Below, one piece after another: positions 9,777 to 16,129 of a stretch of 39,932 nt of DNA. Positions within the stretch are counted from its first letter, which is position 1. The number at the start of each line of letters is the position of its first letter. Source of the DNA: Acidimicrobiaceae bacterium (lineage in GTDB: Bacteria; Actinomycetota; Acidimicrobiia; Acidimicrobiales; Bog-793); contig JAODBN010000394.1 of NCBI GenBank assembly GCA_025463965.1, forward strand, positions 1 through 39,932. Reading direction: 5' to 3'. The notes beneath the pieces were generated by a model. It saw nothing but the letters and a program-made list of their open reading frames with translations, was not told where the DNA came from and did no database searches. The position numbers were made by a program, and so were the translations under genes.

Positions 9777-9860
9777 GTCGGAGTGGCGGAATAGGTAGAC
9801 GCGCTAGCTTGAGGGGCTAGTGCCCGAAAGGGCGTGGGGGTTCAAGTCCCCCCTCCGACA
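9777..9860 (+). tRNA. tRNA-Leu (anticodon GAG), class II with long variable arm; CCA not encoded
   Basis: Acceptor GTCGGAG (9777-9783) pairs with CTCCGAC (9853-9859); discriminator A at 9860. Anticodon stem CTAGC/GCTAG with loop TTGAGGG gives anticodon GAG. Long variable arm TGCCCGAAAGGGCG. T-arm GGGGG-TTCAAGT-CCCCC. Confidence 0.9.
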
Positions 9861-9861
9861 C
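9843..9861 (+). repeat. attL-like direct repeat (CAAGTCCCCCCTCCGACAC), inside the tRNA-Leu 3' end
   Basis: This exact 19-mer recurs at 15125..15143. Confidence 0.85.
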
Positions 9862-9869
9862 GAATGTCC

Positions 9870-9904
9870 TGTCGCGAGACAGCGTTCACACCTGTCTCGC
9901 GACA
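9870..9904. repeat. 13-bp inverted repeat (TGTCGCGAGACAG / CTGTCTCGCGACA, 9-nt spacer) beside attL; probable IS end or terminator
   Basis: Read directly from the sequence. GTTCACAC is also directly repeated at 9884-9891 and 9907-9914. The repeat lies just 3' of the transposase-fragment stop (minus strand). Confidence 0.6.
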
Positions 9905-9908
9905 CAGT

Positions 9909-10181
9909 TCACACCACCAGCGGTTGATAGTCACGCGAGAGGTCAAGCGCCAGCTCGCGTAGGCATTCGCCGTCCTCGGTGATCACCCGGACGTGCAGAT
10001 CGTGGACGAGCAGGATCACCCGCTGTCCCGCGAACGCCCTTCCGATGTCAATGTGGTGAAGCTGGCTGCCCACACGCAGCGTCACCTTGCCCGTCGTCCC
10101 GACGACATCGCGCCGGGTTCGGAAGTGACTGATCGGGATCGGTTCGTCTGACGGCTGCGCCGCAAAGGCTTTGGCTAAGAC
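9909..10181 (-). pseudogene. C-terminal fragment (~90 codons) of an IS481-family (DDE, rve-type) transposase
   Basis: Manual minus-strand translation: ...AQPSDEPIPISHFRTRRDVVGTTGKVTLRVGSQLHHIDIGRAFAGQRVILLVHDLHVRVITEDGECLRELALDLSRDYQPLVV*. This matches from memory the conserved C-terminal tail of actinobacterial IS481-type transposases (...GxVTLRxxGRLHHIGIGRxxAGxxVxLLVxDLxVRVIxxxTGELLRELTLDPxRDYQP). There is no start codon, and an in-frame TAG lies at 10182-10184. Confidence 0.6.
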
Positions 10182-10202
10182 CTACCCGCCGTTGCTCACG
10201 AA

Positions 10203-11954
10203 CTAGGAATCGCCGCCTTCCGCCCCACCTGACTGGGTGGATTCGGACTCGGTTTCCGGCGGCTGGCTTTCTGGGAGCGGCCCTCCGGACTCGACAACCT
10301 TGTTGCCTTCGAAGCTGACCCGGACGCGGCCGCCGGAGAGCTGCTCCACGCCGAGGATGCGGGCATCGGCGCATCGAAGCAAGCAGGAGCCAACGAGGAC
10401 TTCGTTGCCGCCATTGGACACGGTAAGTGGTTCGGTGCGCTGGAAGCCGCCGTCGCCCTCGATGCACTCGCGCAGTGCAGGAAGCTCCTCCTCGCTCCCC
10501 TCGGACGCCCCCGTCCAGTGCTCCTCGAATTCGTAGGTCTCCCCGCGAAGTAGCGCGATGGCGCGGCGCACTGACTGCCGTTCTTCATCAGATTCCGGGA
10601 ATACGAGCGGCGTTGTCGTGAACTTCTGCAACTGCTCCAGAAGGTCGAGGTGCCAGAGCCCGGACTCCCAGTTCGATAATGGCGGCTCACCCAACGGCAG
10701 TTCGGCCTGCGTCATCACGTTGAATGTGCTGCGCAGTCGGAATCTCAGCAAGTGAGGTCGCCGGATGTTCGCCACCAGTCGGTACCCGGGGCCGACAGTC
10801 GCGACGGGAGCGCCGGGAACGCGCTCGAGCTGCAGCGAATACTCGAGCCTCAGTCGGCCATGGACCGGGAATTCCAGTCGAAGCTCAAGATGAAGGTGTC
10901 CTGTTGACTCCGAGGCGCGCAGCTCCAGACCCTTCTGCCCCTTGCTGAGCGTTGCGATTGGGAGGAGTGCTGAGCCGATCGCCGTCCCGTCTTCTGCGAT
11001 GACTTCGATGTCAGCCCACAGAGGAATGTCGGGCTGCGTTGCAGGCGCGTGGACTTGGATCTGCCAAGCGCTCCTCTCGCTTGTTGAACCAAGGCCACCG
11101 GGAACGTTGAACGCGACGGCGTGGACAGCCTCTGGAGGGATTTCGAAGGCAGTCCCGTAGTCCTGATGGGCCTGGAATGCGTCGCGCAGGTCTACCCCCG
11201 CTTCCTGGTCGAGCACCGCGAACGTGAAGTTCCCGCCGATGGGACGGTCGAGGACTGCCTGAGGGAATCTCGCGTAGACGTCGACGGTCACAAAGGACCC
11301 GTTCTCGACCGGCATCGTGGTGGTCATCACCGCCTGTGGATCCACTGATGGGCGCGCTGACGTGACGCGTAGGTCGTAGCGGTAGTACGGGTCGGTGCGG
11401 TTGAGCTCCTGATGCAGATCGCCAAGGGATGTGACCACATCGACCGGCCGCACGGGGTCTGTTGGTCGTCCGAGTAGTTGTGCGAGGGTGCGAACCTTCG
11501 CCTCGAGTTCCGCCTTGCCGTTCTCGAGGAAGTAGCTAATGACGAACCAGTATTTGGAGGCCTCCGAGTGCCAGAACGTGAGGCCACGCCAGTCGCAGGC
11601 AAAGCCTGCATCGGCCGTCAGCTCGTTGAACCACTCGTCGTCTCCACTCGTCGGGTTGAGGGGGATCACGAGTGACCACTGAACGACTGGTCCATCGAGC
11701 CTCGGGTTGATCTTCACCCGCTCGAGCGACTCGGCGATCTTGGCCTTGTCGTTCGCCGATAGTGACTCAGTGAACCGCTTGATCTGGAAGACGTGATAGT
11801 CGCCTGCGACCGGTTCGTAGACGTCCACACCGCCGTCACCCTGCGACGGGCGGCGATGTTGGGCAGTGGGCCGCTCCTGGAGGAGGAGCACCGCCATCAC
11901 ATCCTCGATGAGCTCACCTGGATAGCTGCCCCAGTGCACAGGACCGACTGTCAT
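10203..11954 (-). CDS. Mrr-type PD-(D/E)xK restriction-endonuclease-like domain fused to a ~430-aa uncharacterised C-terminal region
   Basis: ORF 10203..11954 (583 aa). The N-terminus ELIEDVMAVLLL...SQGDGGVDVYEP...YHVFQIKRF mirrors the Mrr_cat pattern (FE..v..LL...GDGGIDG...IQAKRW). No P-loop or other recognisable motif in the rest. Acidic Ser/Glu-rich C-terminal tail. Confidence 0.65.
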   Translation of the reverse strand: MTVGPVHWGSYPGELIEDVMAVLLLQERPTAQHRRPSQGDGGVDVYEPVAGDYHVFQIKRFTESLSANDKAKIAESLERVKINPRLDGPVVQWSLVIPLNPTSGDDEWFNELTADAGFACDWRGLTFWHSEASKYWFVISYFLENGKAELEAKVRTLAQLLGRPTDPVRPVDVVTSLGDLHQELNRTDPYYRYDLRVTSARPSVDPQAVMTTTMPVENGSFVTVDVYARFPQAVLDRPIGGNFTFAVLDQEAGVDLRDAFQAHQDYGTAFEIPPEAVHAVAFNVPGGLGSTSERSAWQIQVHAPATQPDIPLWADIEVIAEDGTAIGSALLPIATLSKGQKGLELRASESTGHLHLELRLEFPVHGRLRLEYSLQLERVPGAPVATVGPGYRLVANIRRPHLLRFRLRSTFNVMTQAELPLGEPPLSNWESGLWHLDLLEQLQKFTTTPLVFPESDEERQSVRRAIALLRGETYEFEEHWTGASEGSEEELPALRECIEGDGGFQRTEPLTVSNGGNEVLVGSCLLRCADARILGVEQLSGGRVRVSFEGNKVVESGGPLPESQPPETESESTQSGGAEGGDS

Positions 11955-12020
11955 AGGGACAAGGATGCCCGAGCGGTGAGACAGTCGGCAGGTGCTTCAC
12001 GATGACGAAGGGCGGCGGCG

Positions 12021-12725
12021 ATGGCCTACTGGACCAACTCGGAAGTGTTGGAGGCAGTCAACCAGGAGATTGAAGCCCACACCGCCGCGTGGGTGTTAGA
12101 AGAGCAGCCCATTGGGTGGGACGAGGTTCGATGGCGCAAGTCATGGTCCAAGTACGAGATGCCTGCCGACGCCCCAATCCTCGACGCTCTTGCCCTCGAG
12201 CTGGTGCAGTACGGGCTCATCCGTCGCAGCTTCGTCTTTGCTCACGCCCACGAGGACCCGACCGACCTCGTTACGGCCGTCATGGCTTGGGGTTCGGGCG
12301 ACGAGGACAACCGCGGTGCCTGGCGGGCCGCCGAGGCAATTGGTGGCCCCGTAGACGATGTCTTCGCAGACGTGACGGCGGCACTCGGCCAAGGGCAGGG
12401 CGCAATCACGGAAGCGTTCCGGGCCCTTTTCCACAACGGACAAGCCCGGCTACCTCGCTGCAACGTGTCCTACGGGACGAAGGTCCTGCACTTCTTCGCT
12501 TACCAGGGCCAAGTACGACCTCGGCCGCTGATTTACGACCTGCGTGTGGCGAACGCCCTCGCACGCATGCCCTCCGCTCCTTACGTTCCCCACCAGGGCA
12601 GTGTCATCCGGGGCGACCAGTACGAGCGGTACTGCTCCTGGGCTGAGGCCTACGCCGAGGACAAGAAGACTGAGCCGATAGTCGTCGAATACGCGCTGTT
12701 CGCGGTTGGAGGACGATTGACCTGA
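12021..12725 (+). CDS. OGG-fold (HhH-GPD superfamily) DNA-glycosylase-like protein
   Basis: ORF 12021..12725 (234 aa). The segment LPRCNVSYGTKVLHFFAYQGQVRPRPLIYDLRVANAL parallels hOGG1 [30 protein letters not shown]. The GTK lysine (K154, nt 12480-12482) and an Asp exactly 19 residues later (D173, nt 12537-12539) match the K249/D268 spacing. The upstream MAWGSGDEDNRGAWR resembles the WG.G..G.GP.R signature of proteins annotated as '8-oxoguanine DNA glycosylase OGG fold protein'. Confidence 0.6.
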   Translation: MAYWTNSEVLEAVNQEIEAHTAAWVLEEQPIGWDEVRWRKSWSKYEMPADAPILDALALELVQYGLIRRSFVFAHAHEDPTDLVTAVMAWGSGDEDNRGAWRAAEAIGGPVDDVFADVTAALGQGQGAITEAFRALFHNGQARLPRCNVSYGTKVLHFFAYQGQVRPRPLIYDLRVANALARMPSAPYVPHQGSVIRGDQYERYCSWAEAYAEDKKTEPIVVEYALFAVGGRLT

Positions 12726-12762
12726 CCAGGCCCCGTGACACCCCTCTGGCATCCTCGTACTC

Positions 12763-13815
12763 GTGGATGCACGGTGGGATGCCGCCAAGACGGTCTGGGG
12801 CGCCGTCCTCGGCCCGGTCGTCAAGGGCACGCTGCCCTACAACGACCTCCGGCAACGGCGTCAGGTACGGCGCGAGACTCGACGCCTGATCACGTGTGAA
12901 CCCTGGCGGGGGAACGATGCAACACCTATCCAGCTTGCGCAGCTTGCCCTCGCGCGCTCGTTGGCCCTGCAGACGAACACACGCCGCGCAGTACGTCATG
13001 GCGAAGCGGTAGCGCTGCTGGCCAGATCTGCGCTCGAGACCTGCTTCGTCGGCCTCTATTGCCTCTATGGCGATGACCCCCTGACCGCGATGCGCGGTGG
13101 TAACGCCAAGGCGCTGCGCAGGATGCTCGTGAACCTAGGGCACGAGGACATCATCACCGAAGACGTCCTGAAGGCGATCGAGGCGGACATAGGGGGTGAC
13201 GGCAAGCTCCCCGACGCACGGAAGATGGCGGAATCCATCTCGGCTGGACTCAACGACGCCCCGTTCCCGCTCAACCTCTACTGGCGGGTGTACGTGCCCC
13301 TGTCGGAGTTCTTCGCCCACGCGAATGGGATGTCGCTGATGCGCCACGTAGGCGACAAGGGAGTGCTCCTTGAAAAGGCGGCGTACCCTTGGGCTCGCTG
13401 GTCAGCCGTCCATACAGCAGATGGCTGTGTTGGGCTTCTCGCCGCCGCGATCGCGCACAAGGACGGGCACCCCAACGAACTATTCGGCAGCTACGCCGAT
13501 CACCATCTGCTGCGGTCACTCGCTCCACTGGCAGTTGTGAGCGGCAAGGGCATGTTCCGATCGCTCGGACCGCGACGACTGTTGGCGCTTGTCAAGGGTG
13601 TCGTGGACCTGCGCGCCTACAAGGCTTCCGGTCGCGCCGAGGCCGACAGCTTCGATGACCGGGTGGCATATCTCCGCTCTTGGTTCGAGCGTCACGTCGG
13701 CAACTTCGACGACATCTCCGAGGAGATCTGGGATATCTACGTCGAGCGGGTCGTGACAGTGCTCGCCACGAACGAGCCGGCTTCGGACCCCCCGTCTCCA
13801 GGAACATCCGCTTAG
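12763..13815 (+). CDS. Hypothetical protein (predicted mostly helical), co-directional partner of the OGG-fold gene
   Basis: ORF 12763..13815 (350 aa). The GTG start lies 38 nt after the upstream stop. No family is confidently recognised. There is a weak resemblance to DUF5677/AbiV-like helical proteins (LLARSALETCFVGLYCLYGDDP; YVPLSEFFAHANGMSL) and an R-x4-H string (RRAVRH). Coding status is supported by length and an island-typical context only. Confidence 0.5.
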   Translation: MDARWDAAKTVWGAVLGPVVKGTLPYNDLRQRRQVRRETRRLITCEPWRGNDATPIQLAQLALARSLALQTNTRRAVRHGEAVALLARSALETCFVGLYCLYGDDPLTAMRGGNAKALRRMLVNLGHEDIITEDVLKAIEADIGGDGKLPDARKMAESISAGLNDAPFPLNLYWRVYVPLSEFFAHANGMSLMRHVGDKGVLLEKAAYPWARWSAVHTADGCVGLLAAAIAHKDGHPNELFGSYADHHLLRSLAPLAVVSGKGMFRSLGPRRLLALVKGVVDLRAYKASGRAEADSFDDRVAYLRSWFERHVGNFDDISEEIWDIYVERVVTVLATNEPASDPPSPGTSA

Positions 13816-13979
13816 GTCTGCGCCAATGTCCGCTCGGTGACCAGAGCTGGGCAGCTCACGGCGAGCCGCCTTTGACACCTGGCTCGAGCAAGTGGCCAGA
13901 CCAAGTAGCGCCTGCGGCTGCGCCTCGAACCCAGGCGCTGAGCTGGGTAACAACGGCTCTCTGGTGCCGGCTTTACCAC

Positions 13980-15044
13980 CTAGGTCGGGTCCGGGAAATC
14001 GGCCCAGTTGATTTGATGACCTCCAGGCGACATCGGGTGCGGCTCGTCAGGGTGCTCGGCCGCGTACTCCGCCATCACCTTCAGGCGGTGCTGAAGCCGT
14101 CGGACGTGGGCGGTCTCGTACGTCACCGACTGCGGCATCGGGAGCGATGCTCTGGGCCCCAGGAGCTCGGCGAGCGAGTCGTCAGGATGGTGATAGAGCC
14201 AGCGCGTGGCGTTCTCCGCCATCATCCGGCTAACCGCCCGCGCACTCGTCGTCGTCCCGTGGATCTCCCGGCCGTTGGGCACGTCCCAGTCTGGGTCGAC
14301 CCGGTTCCTGAGTAGGAGACAGCACGAGCGAGAGACCGGGAAATAGATGACCTGGGCGTTTGCCATGCCCACGCCGTAGATCTGCGGCATCTCGGGATTC
14401 GCAGCGAGGATTATCGGCGAGTCTGAAGTGAGGAGATGCCGGCGATCCCACCGCATGACGTGCCAGCTGTAGGTCATGGTGAACGGCTCCAAGAACTCGT
14501 CGAGCAACTTGAACGAGTCGACTAGGTGAGCTTCGCTCTGGCGCGAGACGTTCCAGTTGAGGTCCCCCACCGAAACCCAGGCCTCGGTCACCTCCTCTTC
14601 GGTCGGCGGACGTCCCAGGTGGTTCTCGAGGGACCTCCGCATCCCCATAGGTCCTTCGGCCGCGACAGTCAGCTTCATAAGGAGGTCGGCGAGTGCGTCC
14701 CCCTCGTCCCTACGGGTCGGGACTCGCAGCAGTTGGAATAGCACGAGCCGGGCAACGACCTCTAGTTCGTCCTCCTCCATCCATCCACCGCGGGCGATGC
14801 GAGCAATCACTGCACCGGCGGGTCCCTCGACACGGTTGGCGATGGCGACCTCCGCCTCATCCGAGAGGCTCCCGTTCTTGAGCTCGATGGTGTTGTAGTC
14901 GTTTTCGGCCGCAGCGTCGTCGATCGACCGCGGGAACGACCTGCCGTCCGCCCGGAGGTCGACCACTTGGATGACGCCAACCTTGGCGAACTCCCGAAGG
15001 ACGAGCTTCGACACGAAGTGGTGGCGGACTCGTCGCTCGGCCAT
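13980..15044 (-). CDS. DUF4238 family protein
   Basis: ORF 13980..15044 (354 aa). The N-terminal RHHFVSKLVLREFA matches the hallmark HY(V/I)PQFYL(K/R)xF opening of DUF4238. Size is typical of that family, which includes a single-gene anti-phage system (Rst_DUF4238). Confidence 0.6.
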   Translation of the reverse strand: MAERRVRHHFVSKLVLREFAKVGVIQVVDLRADGRSFPRSIDDAAAENDYNTIELKNGSLSDEAEVAIANRVEGPAGAVIARIARGGWMEEDELEVVARLVLFQLLRVPTRRDEGDALADLLMKLTVAAEGPMGMRRSLENHLGRPPTEEEVTEAWVSVGDLNWNVSRQSEAHLVDSFKLLDEFLEPFTMTYSWHVMRWDRRHLLTSDSPIILAANPEMPQIYGVGMANAQVIYFPVSRSCCLLLRNRVDPDWDVPNGREIHGTTTSARAVSRMMAENATRWLYHHPDDSLAELLGPRASLPMPQSVTYETAHVRRLQHRLKVMAEYAAEHPDEPHPMSPGGHQINWADFPDPT

Positions 15045-15124
15045 AGCGTGATCTTCGCAGCACCCCCGTCACCCGCGAAGTCAAGCGAACTAACTCCCAC
15101 GTGATCCCGCGGGTCGCAGGCGGC

Positions 15125-15143
15125 CAAGTCCCCCCTCCGACAC
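15125..15143 (+). repeat. attR-like direct repeat = displaced original 3' end of tRNA-Leu (followed by CCA)
   Basis: CAAGTCCCCCCTCCGACAC is identical to 9843..9861. Here it continues ...ACACCA, an encoded CCA, whereas the functional tRNA copy continues ...ACACGA. Confidence 0.85.
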
Positions 15144-15149
15144 CATATA

Positions 15150-15182
15150 AAGCCCAGCTCAACGAGCTGGGCTTCTTGATTT
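15150..15182 (+). terminator. Rho-independent terminator-like hairpin (probable original tRNA-Leu terminator)
   Basis: AGCCCAGCTC (15151-15160) pairs perfectly with GAGCTGGGCT (15164-15173), followed by TCTTGATTT. It sits 7 nt after the displaced tRNA end. Confidence 0.65.
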
Positions 15183-15216
15183 GCCAACGCAAAGTCATCC
15201 CTCCGGCCACCGTCTT

Positions 15217-15249
15217 GGACACGAGGTGGACACGAGGTGGACACGACAC
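15217..15249 (+). repeat. Tandem 11-bp repeat GGACACGAGGT x2 plus a degenerate third copy (GGACACGACAC); a further GGACAC at 15255
   Basis: Read directly from the sequence. Lies immediately upstream of the integrase remnant. Confidence 0.7.
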
Positions 15250-15264
15250 CTCACGGACACCGTC

Positions 15265-15900
15265 CGGGCACGGAGGAGCTGTGGAGCGTGGGCGAGAACG
15301 TCGCGCGGCCGGGGGGCGGCTACTACCGACTCGAGCTCTCCCGGGCCTGGCGGTCGGCGACGCCAGAAATGGGTCGGCGCGTTCGAGGCCGAGCACAACG
15401 CCAGGGCGCCCTCGCCGCCGTCCAGGTGGACGTGTCCCCCGGGAAGGAGGCGGCGCGCACCTTCGCTGACCTCACCGAGGAGTGGCTGGAGGTCGTCGGG
15501 TCGTGACGGAGACTGGACCGACTCTCGAGTGCCCAGATCCAGCGTTTGTACGTCGCGCACAGCGCTCGTGGAGCGCCCGCGGGACGACTCGAGGGAGCGG
15601 CCGGTCTACTCGCCGGACCAAGTGCGACGCTTCCTCGGGGCAGTGGGCAGCGACCGGTTGCGCGCCCTGTGGCAACTCGTCCCTTACCACGAGGGCTCCG
15701 CCGAGAAGAACTCGCCCGGACTGCGCTGGAGAGACCTCGACCCCGCGGCGTCGCCGCCGCTGCTGACCGTCCGGTCCACCCGCACCACTGCCGGCAACAA
15801 AGTTGTTGAGGGCGATCCGTAGACGCGTTCGGGGCGTCGCACCCTGGTGCTGATGGCCAGAACACGGCGCTGTTGCAGTGATCCCCTGAGCGTGCCTGAC
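15265..15900 (+). pseudogene. Tyrosine recombinase (phage-type integrase) pseudogene: multiple frameshifts, one in-frame TAG, catalytic C-terminal domain missing
   Basis: Integrase-like pieces are spread over three frames: GAVERGRERRAAGG / GGYYRLELSRAWRS / KWVGAFEAEHNAR / VDVSPGKEAARTFADLTEEWLEVV / RPVYSPDQVRRFLGAVGSDRLRALWQLV / GLRWRDLDPAASPPLLTVRSTRTTAGNKVVEGDP-TAG(15820-15822)-TRSGRRTLVL. The R..H..RH..Y catalytic region was not found downstream. The 3' limit is approximate. Confidence 0.6.
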
Positions 15901-16129
15901 CAGAAATCGCGAACTTCCGGTGACCCCTGGCAGTGGTGGTGGTGGCCGGTGGCCTGCACTCGGTGGCGATTCGACCCTTGATGTACGTGAGCAGGTGTTC
16001 GTCGCCTGTGGCCAGCTCCTGGTCCACCTGTTGCTCGGCCGGGGTCGAAAGGGTCTCCTTTTGGATCGGGCGTCAGCTAATCGATCTCATGCAGCAGGCG
16101 CTCTTGATCCGCCAGGTCGCGCTCGTAGG

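Follow-up and report, generated by a model that had tools for sequence, protein, structure and literature searches.

How did the genes that follow a tRNA-Leu(GAG) gene of an uncultured Acidimicrobiaceae bacterium come to lie there, and do they form a defence system? The window, the whole stretch of DNA analysed (39,932 nucleotides), contains this tRNA gene intact at 9777-9861 (or 9860) on the + strand (ARAGORN; Rfam RF00005, 55.4 bits). An earlier note had described a perfect 19-bp direct repeat of its 3' end enclosing about 5.3 kb, and this is borne out: CAAGTCCCCCCTCCGACAC occurs exactly twice, at 9843-9861 (+; the left copy and att core at attL) and at 15125-15143, no dinucleotide shuffle (0/100) held two matches with up to three mismatches allowed, and the chance expectation for a second 19-bp copy is 0.01. 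At the right junction, attR (15112-15143, +), 13 nt of imperfectly tRNA-like sequence stand before the repeat copy, a weak upstream extension of the similarity with 7/13 bases matching. The proximal copy, where the tRNA 3' end is rebuilt and the first C alone of CCA is encoded, runs into GAA and then foreign sequence; CCA (15143-15145) and a terminator are present at the distal copy only, the latter as a hairpin at 15150-15174 with an 11-bp stem, scored as an intrinsic terminator by terminator scan and folding (dG -18.5, z -4.8). Their presence there fits a displaced original tRNA 3' end (15143-15174, +). The interval holds four intact ORFs in the order < > > <, as the earlier note had it: p1 (10203-11954, -), p2 (12021-12725, +), p3 (12763-13815, +) and p4 (13980-15044, -), with p1 and p2 divergent across a 66-nt spacer and p3 following p2 in the same orientation after 37 nt.

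We compared the site with that of four synteny-sharing relatives. The tRNA-Leu(GAG) and its place after an SBP gene are conserved in all four, and upstream synteny matches as far as the tRNA and stops exactly there. None of the four has p1-p4, and all have mobile-element genes at this tRNA site. In three of them a large serine recombinase lies directly against the tRNA, after the same ...GACAC junction; TraG/TrwB-like, Rep, FtsK/SpoIIIE and HipA genes are found near the tRNA across the four. The absence of all four genes from these relatives and the other mobile elements in their place uphold the proposal of an inserted island outside the core genome. Exact copies of the p1-p4 proteins came from one sample only, and no empty site was found, since even in the closest genomes available the flanking SBP protein is only 51-56% identical. 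GC content undergoes a real drop at the tRNA, from 0.71 to 0.62-0.65, without recovery at 15143; it stays low until ~39 kb, with low GC3 for 24 kb past the repeat, and the 5.3 kb are therefore not delimited by composition.

Next to the left repeat copy lies a truncated IS481-like element (9865-10175, -, with inferred end coordinates), recognised by tblastn, TRF and the end architecture of its relatives. The remnant, likewise described earlier, is real: it matches an annotated IS481 family transposase at 38% identity across 86 aa (tblastn, E 3e-8). Preserved are the right end (TGT terminus) and the last ~86 transposase codons (to ~10172), while the 5' part is deleted. A subterminal 23-nt repeat stands twice in tandem at 9868-9913 (TRF), and intact relatives share this end architecture. 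The 19-bp repeat could then be a target-site duplication of this element, and the 5.3 kb IS-borne or IS-associated instead of site-specifically integrated. Only 3 bp lie between the tRNA end and the IS end, and a related Arthrobacter IS is flanked by a 15-bp tRNA-3'-like repeat in the same orientation. However, the duplications of intact relatives, of 15 bp (locus L034) or up to 17 bp (locus L116), abut or overlap their TG/CA ends, whereas the repeat here is 19 bp long and excludes the 3 bp beside the IS end, a separation that argues against an IS duplication. Near 15125 there is neither a left IS end nor an inverted copy of the 23-nt repeat, a Mycolicibacterium copy of the IS sits in a target that is not tRNA-like, and recombinase-borne elements of relatives occupy exactly this tRNA junction; we consider a target-site duplication very improbable. 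That the repeat arose by chance or as a duplication artefact, the genes being ordinary lineage-specific chromosomal ones, would agree with the long downstream run of low GC3 and the lack of an empty site, but is scarcely credible against the rarity expected of a second repeat copy, the CCA and terminator precisely at the distal copy, the IS remnant here and mobile elements at the same site in relatives, and the confinement of exact protein copies to one sample.

The reading that we favour, and hold to be probable if far from certain, is that the interval is a decayed tRNA-integrated mobile element with four intact genes that act separately, three of them in defence-type roles. An integrative element would have recombined site-specifically into the 3' end of tRNA-Leu(GAG), so that the 19-bp att core came to stand at either junction and the original CCA and terminator were displaced downstream by 5.3 kb. 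The IS481-like element would then have inserted 3 bp from the left junction, and a later deletion would have taken most of it together with the recombinase and transfer module of the integrative element. By analogy with the relatives, the lost enzyme was probably a large serine recombinase; we infer its type in this way because the window has no recombinase and no relic of one was found within the island. Four independent accessory genes would have survived this decay intact, each acting on its own and not as one system.

The best lead of the island is p1 (583 aa), to which motif and fold assign an N-terminal Mrr/Cap4/Avs4-like PD-(D/E)xK domain (about residues 1-190; E17, D40, D44, Q57, K59), followed by an uncharacterised, beta-rich C-terminal region whose ~370 residues have no match among solved structures. 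The motif does not vary in alignments A1 and A6, GDGxD/QxK being the same in all of 35 family members (20-50% identity), and the AF2 model (pLDDT 84) gave local Foldseek matches to Avs4 (8dgf_B, prob 1.0), Cap4 (prob ~0.9) and a viral 'restriction endonuclease' (prob 1.0). No match to p1 was found in Pfam, NCBIfam or PHROG, its scores lying below the Pfam Mrr_cat and DUF4297 thresholds; one member of the family does match Mrr_cat (5e-4), and the PADLOC match of p1 to LmuA is not significant (E 0.02). The earlier assignment to Mrr-type nucleases thus holds by invariant motif and local folds, but not by a Pfam match. With Cap4 (CBASS), Avs4, LmuA (Lamassu) and Mrr_cat type IV nucleases p1 shares the restriction-endonuclease fold and E...GDGxD...QxK, and, as in those, a larger portion with a regulatory or sensor role is attached to the nuclease; unlike these, it is without a SAVED domain, STAND NTPase or SMC partner, and its neighbourhood lacks a cyclase gene. 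Its family is large and unannotated (3,391 clusters), with variable neighbours that include DISARM, type II and type IV restriction, reverse transcriptase, QatD and PDC candidates (in a survey without background control), and also transposases and relaxases. We propose that p1 acts as a single-protein nuclease, in which the C-terminal region most likely recognises a sign of infection or of foreign DNA and thereby allows the Mrr/Cap4-like endonuclease to cleave DNA.

The OGG fold earlier attributed to p2 (234 aa), a stand-alone OGG-like HhH DNA glycosylase, is confirmed by its match to Pfam PF21790 (5.5e-32, profile positions 4-201 of 201). GTK(154)...D(173) are invariant columns in alignment A4, and the K-to-D spacing equals that of hOGG1 K249/D268, in a pairwise alignment that by itself is not significant (809/2000 shuffles score equally well). 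Homologues of p2 adjoin relaxase, transposase, TIR-TPR, Vsr and GmrSD genes, in a survey likewise without background control. Defence-associated stand-alone HhH DNA glycosylases, Dag1, Dag2 and others related to them, have recently been described from Vibrio integrons (Getz et al. preprint, 10.1101/2025.10.29.685425), with Brig1 as a UDG-fold analogue (PMC11078745). Like them, p2 is a small stand-alone glycosylase of the HhH superfamily that lies on mobile DNA, has a conserved Lys-Asp pair and is predicted to excise modified bases from phage DNA, although p2 belongs to PF21790 and is likened to the Dag families by description, not by sequence. END nucleases combine an OGG-like fold with an McrB GTPase or a nuclease (PLD or NucS-like PD-DExK), and the C-terminal domain by which they sense modification most resembles PF21790, EndoIII and Ogg1 (10.1101/2025.03.31.646159). 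The OGG-like domain of END has no catalytic activity and is fused to the nuclease, whereas p2 is a separate protein that keeps the K/D pair, with the p1 nuclease gene as a non-conserved neighbour. Most likely p2 is an active, probably bifunctional HhH glycosylase that, like Dag, would remove non-canonical, probably modified-purine, bases from invading DNA. With PF21790-like domains serving as END sensors and Dag glycosylases as validated defences, the sensing or excision of modified phage DNA can, for this fold, no longer be called undescribed, as it had been for this locus.

For p3 (350 aa, all-helical) no Pfam family was found, DUF5677 being below the cut-off (E 0.11), and the AF2 model (pLDDT 63) gave an uninformative fold search. 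Its 21 homologues have many invariant polar residues and occur alone or after a sigma-70-like gene, unlinked to OGG genes; there is no evidence at all for its suggested part in a defence system. In p4 (354 aa), the DUF4238 protein named earlier is verified by a full-profile Pfam match (PF14022, 1.3e-31, 1-281 of 281). No match to p4 was found in PADLOC or PHROG, nor by tblastn in 50,697 phage records; its remote homologues (24-29% identity) are on actinobacterial plasmids. Of the DUF4238 family, one member has a validated anti-T7 role, namely Rst_DUF4238, which acts as a single gene and comes from a P2-like prophage of E. coli (Rousset et al. 2022, PMC9122126). Both are single proteins covering the full Pfam profile on acquired DNA, but they are very distant in sequence.

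The earlier note had proposed the OGG/helical pair and the nuclease fusion as candidates for an undescribed system. In one such system, with p4 or without it, modified bases would be flagged or excised by the OGG-fold protein and DNA would be cut by the nuclease, the helical protein coupling the two. Tight packing across the 66-nt and 37-nt spacers speaks for this, and the functional logic exists in END nucleases, where a PF21790-like sensor and a nuclease are fused. Against it, our co-occurrence survey (111 fetched loci; tblastn and family HMMs) never found the p1, p2 and p3 families together: 83 loci with p1 relatives held no OGG-like or p3-like gene, seven with OGG homologues held no p1 or p3, and p3 homologues stood alone or behind the sigma-70-like gene; a single element had DUF4238 close to a p1 homologue. 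Moreover, p2 retains the catalytic pair, whereas END sensor domains are inactivated, and one multi-gene system appears very improbable. For separately acting genes, a defence cargo agrees with defence-type hallmarks in three of the four and with the mobile or defence-rich neighbourhoods of p1 and p2 homologues, but not with PADLOC, which gave no significant match for any of the four proteins. They might instead be ordinary accessory genes that serve the mobile element itself and have no anti-phage role, for example by repairing or processing the transferred DNA, by keeping out rival plasmids, or through anti-restriction or addiction, as the lack of significant PADLOC matches would allow. Homologues of p1 adjoin relaxase and SSB genes (loci L004-L006) and OGG homologues adjoin TrwC relaxases (L015, L016), positions that would suit establishment or leading-region functions in a conjugative element, and repair is the primary role of HhH glycosylases. 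We regard this as unlikely, though worth keeping in view, against the strict conservation of nuclease residues across very variable p1-family neighbourhoods, several clearly defence loci, the experimentally shown defence members among DUF4238 proteins and HhH glycosylases, and the persistence of intact genes in an element that lost transfer and integration functions.

The small island is thus real and its defence cargo plausible, and it has known counterparts. Defence-gene hotspots occur on tRNA-integrated elements such as P4-like satellites and in P2 prophages (Rousset et al. 2022, PMC9122126), and defence loci are also associated with serine recombinases (PMC12632615). Unlike these, the island has lost its recombinase, its host is an uncultured high-GC actinobacterium, and its genes, undetected by PADLOC, are known from sequence alone. 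With both classes it shares a small acquired block at a tRNA 3' end, att repeats and unrelated single-gene modules that include DUF4238, and its relatives have serine recombinases at the same site.

The sole tRNA gene of the window is tRNA-Leu(GAG) at 9777-9861 (ARAGORN and Rfam), and its last 19 bases, CAAGTCCCCCCTCCGACAC, occur exactly (19/19) at 9843-9861 and again at 15125-15143, with no third site in the window. Allowing up to three mismatches still gave two sites only, and two copies arose in 0 of 100 shuffles of the window, so that the perfect direct repeat of the tRNA 3' end reported earlier to bracket about 5.3 kb stands. A further tRNA-like match upstream of the distal copy (7/13 bases) carries little weight by itself. 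Past the proximal copy come GAA and foreign sequence, and past the distal one the remainder of the CCA (15143-15145) and, six bases later, a terminator hairpin with an 11-bp stem and a T-rich tail (15150-15174; dG -18.5 kcal/mol, z -4.8). This layout of repeat, CCA and terminator is the pattern expected of integration into a tRNA 3' end, which would have rebuilt tRNA-Leu(GAG) at the left junction (attL) and pushed the original end and its terminator to the right junction (attR). At the tRNA, GC drops from ~0.71 to 0.62-0.65, and GC3 from 0.91-0.95 to 0.75-0.82, with values of 0.73-0.85 in every gene of the 29 kb downstream (9862-39000). Neither recovers at 15143: both stay low for another 24 kb of metabolic operons, among them the sugar, PdxA, gluconolactonase and SIS operons past attR, and hence the 5.3 kb are delimited by the repeat and not by composition. 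The entire region downstream of the tRNA may represent an older acquisition or highly variable DNA; synteny with relatives also stops at the tRNA. The ORFs at 15181-16027 have no Pfam match, so nothing points to a second island module immediately past attR. Just past the displaced tRNA terminator lies a perfect 11-nt tandem repeat, TGGACACGAGG (2.8 copies, 15216-15246).

Scanning genomes with the SBP protein, encoded upstream of tRNA-Leu(GAG), identified as nearest species-level genomes four uncultured Actinomycetota MAGs with SBP 51-56% identical. The upstream block uvrC, rapZ, gap, secG, SBP and tRNA-Leu(GAG) is common to the window and all four relatives; downstream of the tRNA nothing is shared, and the four island genes (p1-p4) are absent from all four. 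The earlier note had named lineage-wide core genes at a locus lacking the repeat as a refuting finding; the genes are missing from these distant relatives, and the repeat is present in the window. All four relatives diverge directly after ...GACAC and continue with mobile-element genes: large serine recombinase ORFs extending into the tRNA 3' end (L018 11877-13691, L020 11840-13334 and L021 11806-13604), near a TraG/TrwB-like gene in L018 and a Rep gene in L020, or HipA and FtsK/SpoIIIE genes after the tRNA (L019 11222-18582). With mobile-element genes at the same tRNA in every relative, tRNA-Leu(GAG) is therefore a recurrent integration site of the lineage, and it looks like a hotspot for serine-recombinase elements. 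The window's island has neither a recombinase ORF nor a vestige of one; with the serine recombinase of a relative as query, tblastn matched 9807-10010, an artefact of that ORF running into the tRNA. An empty site, with tRNA-Leu directly joined to CCATATAAAGCCCAGC, was seen neither in exact-protein look-ups nor in the four relatives, which do lack the four genes but have their sites filled by other elements.

The spot beside the tRNA where relatives have the serine recombinase is held in the window by an IS481-like remnant, whose presence in the interval is borne out by a C-terminal 86-aa transposase fragment 38% identical to an annotated IS481 family transposase. The remnant, which retains one end only (the right), runs from 9865 and comprises a TGT terminus (9865), two tandem 23-nt repeats (9868-9913) and the last ~86 transposase codons. 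Intact relatives in Arthrobacter (L034 484-1849) and Mycolicibacterium (L116 982-2446) show full IS481 architecture with doubled 23-25-nt subterminal repeats at both ends, and their duplications, of 15 bp and up to 17 bp respectively, abut or overlap the TG/CA termini. Because the window's 19-bp repeat ends 3 bp before the IS end, and no left IS end lies near 15125, the repeat is not the IS's own duplication. The target of the Arthrobacter copy, TGGTGCCCCGGGCGG, resembles a tRNA 3' end, and the copy is oriented like the window's remnant, a hint that this IS clade prefers tRNA ends; the Mycolicibacterium copy is not in such a target.

The most economical history has three steps, whose order, like the recombinase type, we infer: an element would have integrated at tRNA-Leu(GAG), an IS would have inserted beside the rebuilt tRNA end, and a deletion starting within the IS would have taken away the recombinase and transfer genes, ending between about 10175 and 10203. 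We hold it very probable that the interval is the remnant of an integrated element. The att-bounded tRNA-Leu insertion carries, besides the IS remnant, four independent genes, all intact and, compared with their homologues, of full length. As a whole, we read the locus as a decayed integrative element with a small island of defence-type genes, a known kind; if the genes work as proposed, it shows that defence cargo can outlast the element that delivered it.

The first gene, p1 (10203-11954, minus strand), encodes a 583-aa protein with no match in Pfam (E<=1), NCBIfam or PHROG and a weak PADLOC match to LmuA (E 0.02, residues 29-81). A word-indexed search found 26 relatives, and an exhaustive profile search 3,391 cluster representatives (clusters defined at 50% identity), 819 of them at E<=1e-30, ranging from soil actinobacteria to human-gut bacteria; the 150 best are nearly all full length (about 560-600 aa). 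In 35 members at 20-50% identity G39, D40, G42, D44, Q57 and K59 are invariant and E17 nearly so, and E17, D40, D44, Q57 and K59 are conserved in the family alignments A1 and A6. By sequence, this E...D...QxK signature is that of a predicted Mrr-type PD-(D/E)xK nuclease. Pfam Mrr_cat and DUF4297 thresholds were not reached by p1, and one of the 35 relatives matched Mrr_cat (5e-4). The good AF2 model (pLDDT 84) matched Avs4 (8dgf_B, probability 1.0), Cap4 (~0.9) and phage or viral 'restriction endonuclease' models (probability 1.0, rmsd 3.8) in Foldseek, so that alignments and fold together place an E...D...(E/Q)xK motif on a restriction-endonuclease fold and sustain the Mrr-type assignment of the earlier note. 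The credible matches were all local, of 124-220 columns, the size of a nuclease domain (the output does not place these columns on the p1 sequence). The other ~370 residues, beta-rich, matched nothing, in agreement with the long C-terminal region having been described as without assigned function; whole-chain Foldseek rows to DnaK, MHC and PCNA (probability <0.25) were set aside and do not resolve this region. The p1 profile found nothing among PDB sequences, nor were family members found on IMG/VR viral contigs. We infer that p1 would act as a self-contained effector, its C-terminal region sensing a cue and releasing the nuclease, and its nuclease part working like those of Cap4, Avs4 and LmuA. 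Neither p1 nor its neighbours include CBASS, Avs or Lamassu modules (CD-NTase and SAVED, STAND NTPase, or LmuB SMC), and p1, without these partner or fused modules, therefore falls outside those systems.

The earlier description of the second gene product, p2 (12021-12725, plus strand; 234 aa), as an OGG-fold glycosylase-like protein also stands: it matches PF21790 'OGG-like' over nearly the whole profile (positions 4-201/201; 5.5e-32, 111.5 bits against a cut-off of 27), and T153, K154 and D173 are invariant among 16 homologues in the arrangement GTKV...(19 residues)...D. The K154/D173 spacing equals that of K249/D268 in human OGG1, and the catalytic assignment is putative because the pairwise motif alignment is not significant alone. 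The p2 profile retrieved nothing from PDB sequences, and its family was not found on IMG/VR viral contigs. Phages with 7-deazaguanine DNA are countered by stand-alone HhH glycosylases, namely Dag2, 17 further families and Dag1, which relies on a Lys-Asp pair and appears to be bifunctional (10.1101/2025.10.29.685425). By analogy with these enzymes, p2 may excise non-canonical, most likely modified-purine, bases from invading DNA and nick it. The domain with which END nucleases sense modification resembles PF21790 most closely, lacks catalytic activity and is joined to a nuclease in one protein (10.1101/2025.03.31.646159), whereas p2 is a separate protein retaining the K/D pair; being neither fused nor inactivated, it is not an END nuclease, and Pfam finds no OGG-like domain in p1. 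If p2 is an active stand-alone PF21790 glycosylase, it ties the inactivated END sensor domain to its enzymatic ancestor and extends glycosylase-based immunity beyond Vibrio integrons.

The third gene, p3 (12763-13815, plus strand), encodes a 350-aa all-helical protein with 21 homologues and many invariant polar residues, and it remains the helical protein of no known family or fold that it was first said to be (AF2 pLDDT 63, no meaningful Foldseek or PDB match). A DUF5677 identity reached E 0.11 only and was discarded; a DUF5677 candidate assayed elsewhere was not among the positives (PMC12632615). Homologues of p3 stand alone, except that distant ones (38% identity) overlap by ~10 nt the end of an upstream, sigma-70-like gene of ~327 aa (L009 2678-4736, L010 1-2062), for which precomputed Sigma70_r2/r4_2 matches exist in L009 and none is on record for the cut L010 copy. 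The overlap points to translational coupling with a sigma-factor-like protein in this part of the family. The window's PhyH has no relation to the PhyH gene adjoining another p3 homologue (L008).

The fourth gene, p4 (13980-15044, minus strand; 354 aa), does encode a DUF4238 protein, covering the full PF14022 profile (1-281/281, 1.3e-31). Its nearest relatives, 24-29% identical, are on Streptomyces, Rhodococcus and Amycolatopsis plasmids, and tblastn found no match in phage records. Like Rst_DUF4238, p4 is a single gene with this domain; one protein of the family defends E. coli against T7 (PMC9122126), and p4 may act as other DUF4238 proteins do. No PADLOC model matched p4 even at E<=10, and since a second DUF4238 protein likewise had none, the library may lack a model. 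On a Rhodococcus erythropolis plasmid (L033 3440-8002) two DUF4238 genes flank a 569-aa hypothetical gene, which is not a p1 relative, and on a Streptomyces plasmid (L032) one overlaps an upstream 455-aa hypothetical gene, an overlap suggesting that some DUF4238 genes have partners.

The proposal that the OGG/helical pair and the nuclease fusion make up one undescribed system found no support. We compared neighbourhoods of p1 (83 loci), p2 (7) and p3 homologues (3, and a fourth known without its DNA) as well as DUF4238 loci on plasmids, searching all their ORFs by tblastn and with HMMs derived from the alignment of each family. No p1 relative had an OGG-like or p3-like neighbour (83 loci), and neither p1 nor p3 occurred near OGG homologues (7 loci), where a 583-aa gene after one homologue (L016) is not a p1 relative. 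In a single element (L004/L005), a p1 homologue has a different DUF4238 gene 1.5 kb away, whose L005 copy carries a frameshift. As the p1, p2 and p3 families do not co-occur in these loci, the window's cluster is a chance assembly of independent modules and not a conserved system.

Whether this cargo is for defence is judged from the context of homologues and by analogy. Homologues of p1 were found beside a HEPN ApeA gene, beside an Mrr_cat/NA-iREase1 gene and in a relaxase-SSB-Tn3 element, and the 127 immediate neighbours of 37 non-redundant homologues, which comprise no recurrent partner, include DISARM DrmA/DrmB, a BstXI-type restriction-modification pair, type IV enzymes, a reverse transcriptase, QatD and several PADLOC candidate families, together with transposases and plain metabolic genes (a survey without background control). 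OGG homologues adjoin TrwC relaxases, transposases and an integrase, and are near TIR-TPR, Vsr and GmrSD genes. The positions next to relaxase and SSB genes also fit functions that serve a conjugative element itself instead of defence. In a Tn3-bearing element a p1 homologue sits just downstream of the relaxase (NikA-like/MobC and relaxase) and near SSB genes (L004 5559-13956, L005 4152-12552), and another adjoins SSB (L006 9146-11720); in these long-read assemblies it is truncated or split (493 aa; 444 + 143 aa). The neighbourhoods and the DUF4238 and Dag precedents speak for the defence cargo proposed earlier; against it, the PADLOC search advised for it gave no significant match for any island protein. 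PHROGs gave none; the advised Foldseek comparison led from p1 to nucleases but from p3 to nothing meaningful. That at least one island gene is a working anti-phage defence has, in our judgement, an even to slightly better chance, and we lean a little more firmly towards the account as a whole, an island remnant of independent genes with p1, p2 and p4 acting as proposed. If so, they are actinobacterial examples of three single-gene defences.

The real novelty potential lies in the p1 family, which is large, conserved over its full length and absent from Pfam, NCBIfam and PADLOC. A bolder and rather doubtful reading is that p1 represents a widespread single-protein defence-nuclease family (~3,400 clusters), neither annotated nor tested, whose Mrr/Cap4-like endonuclease would be governed by a new C-terminal sensor of ~370 residues with no need of a partner gene, here beside an active OGG-like glycosylase attacking modified phage DNA. 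The family is easy and cheap to test, and a positive result would make it a new defence family with a new sensor domain.

Exact-protein look-ups yielded no sister strain, and located exact copies of the island and flank proteins in one public sample only (SRR13312996), on broken contigs. Its short-read contigs break at 9826 (in the tRNA), 10083 (IS remnant), 14881 (DUF4238 gene) and 15156 (just past the distal repeat), positions compatible with repeated IS copies or population heterogeneity at the locus.
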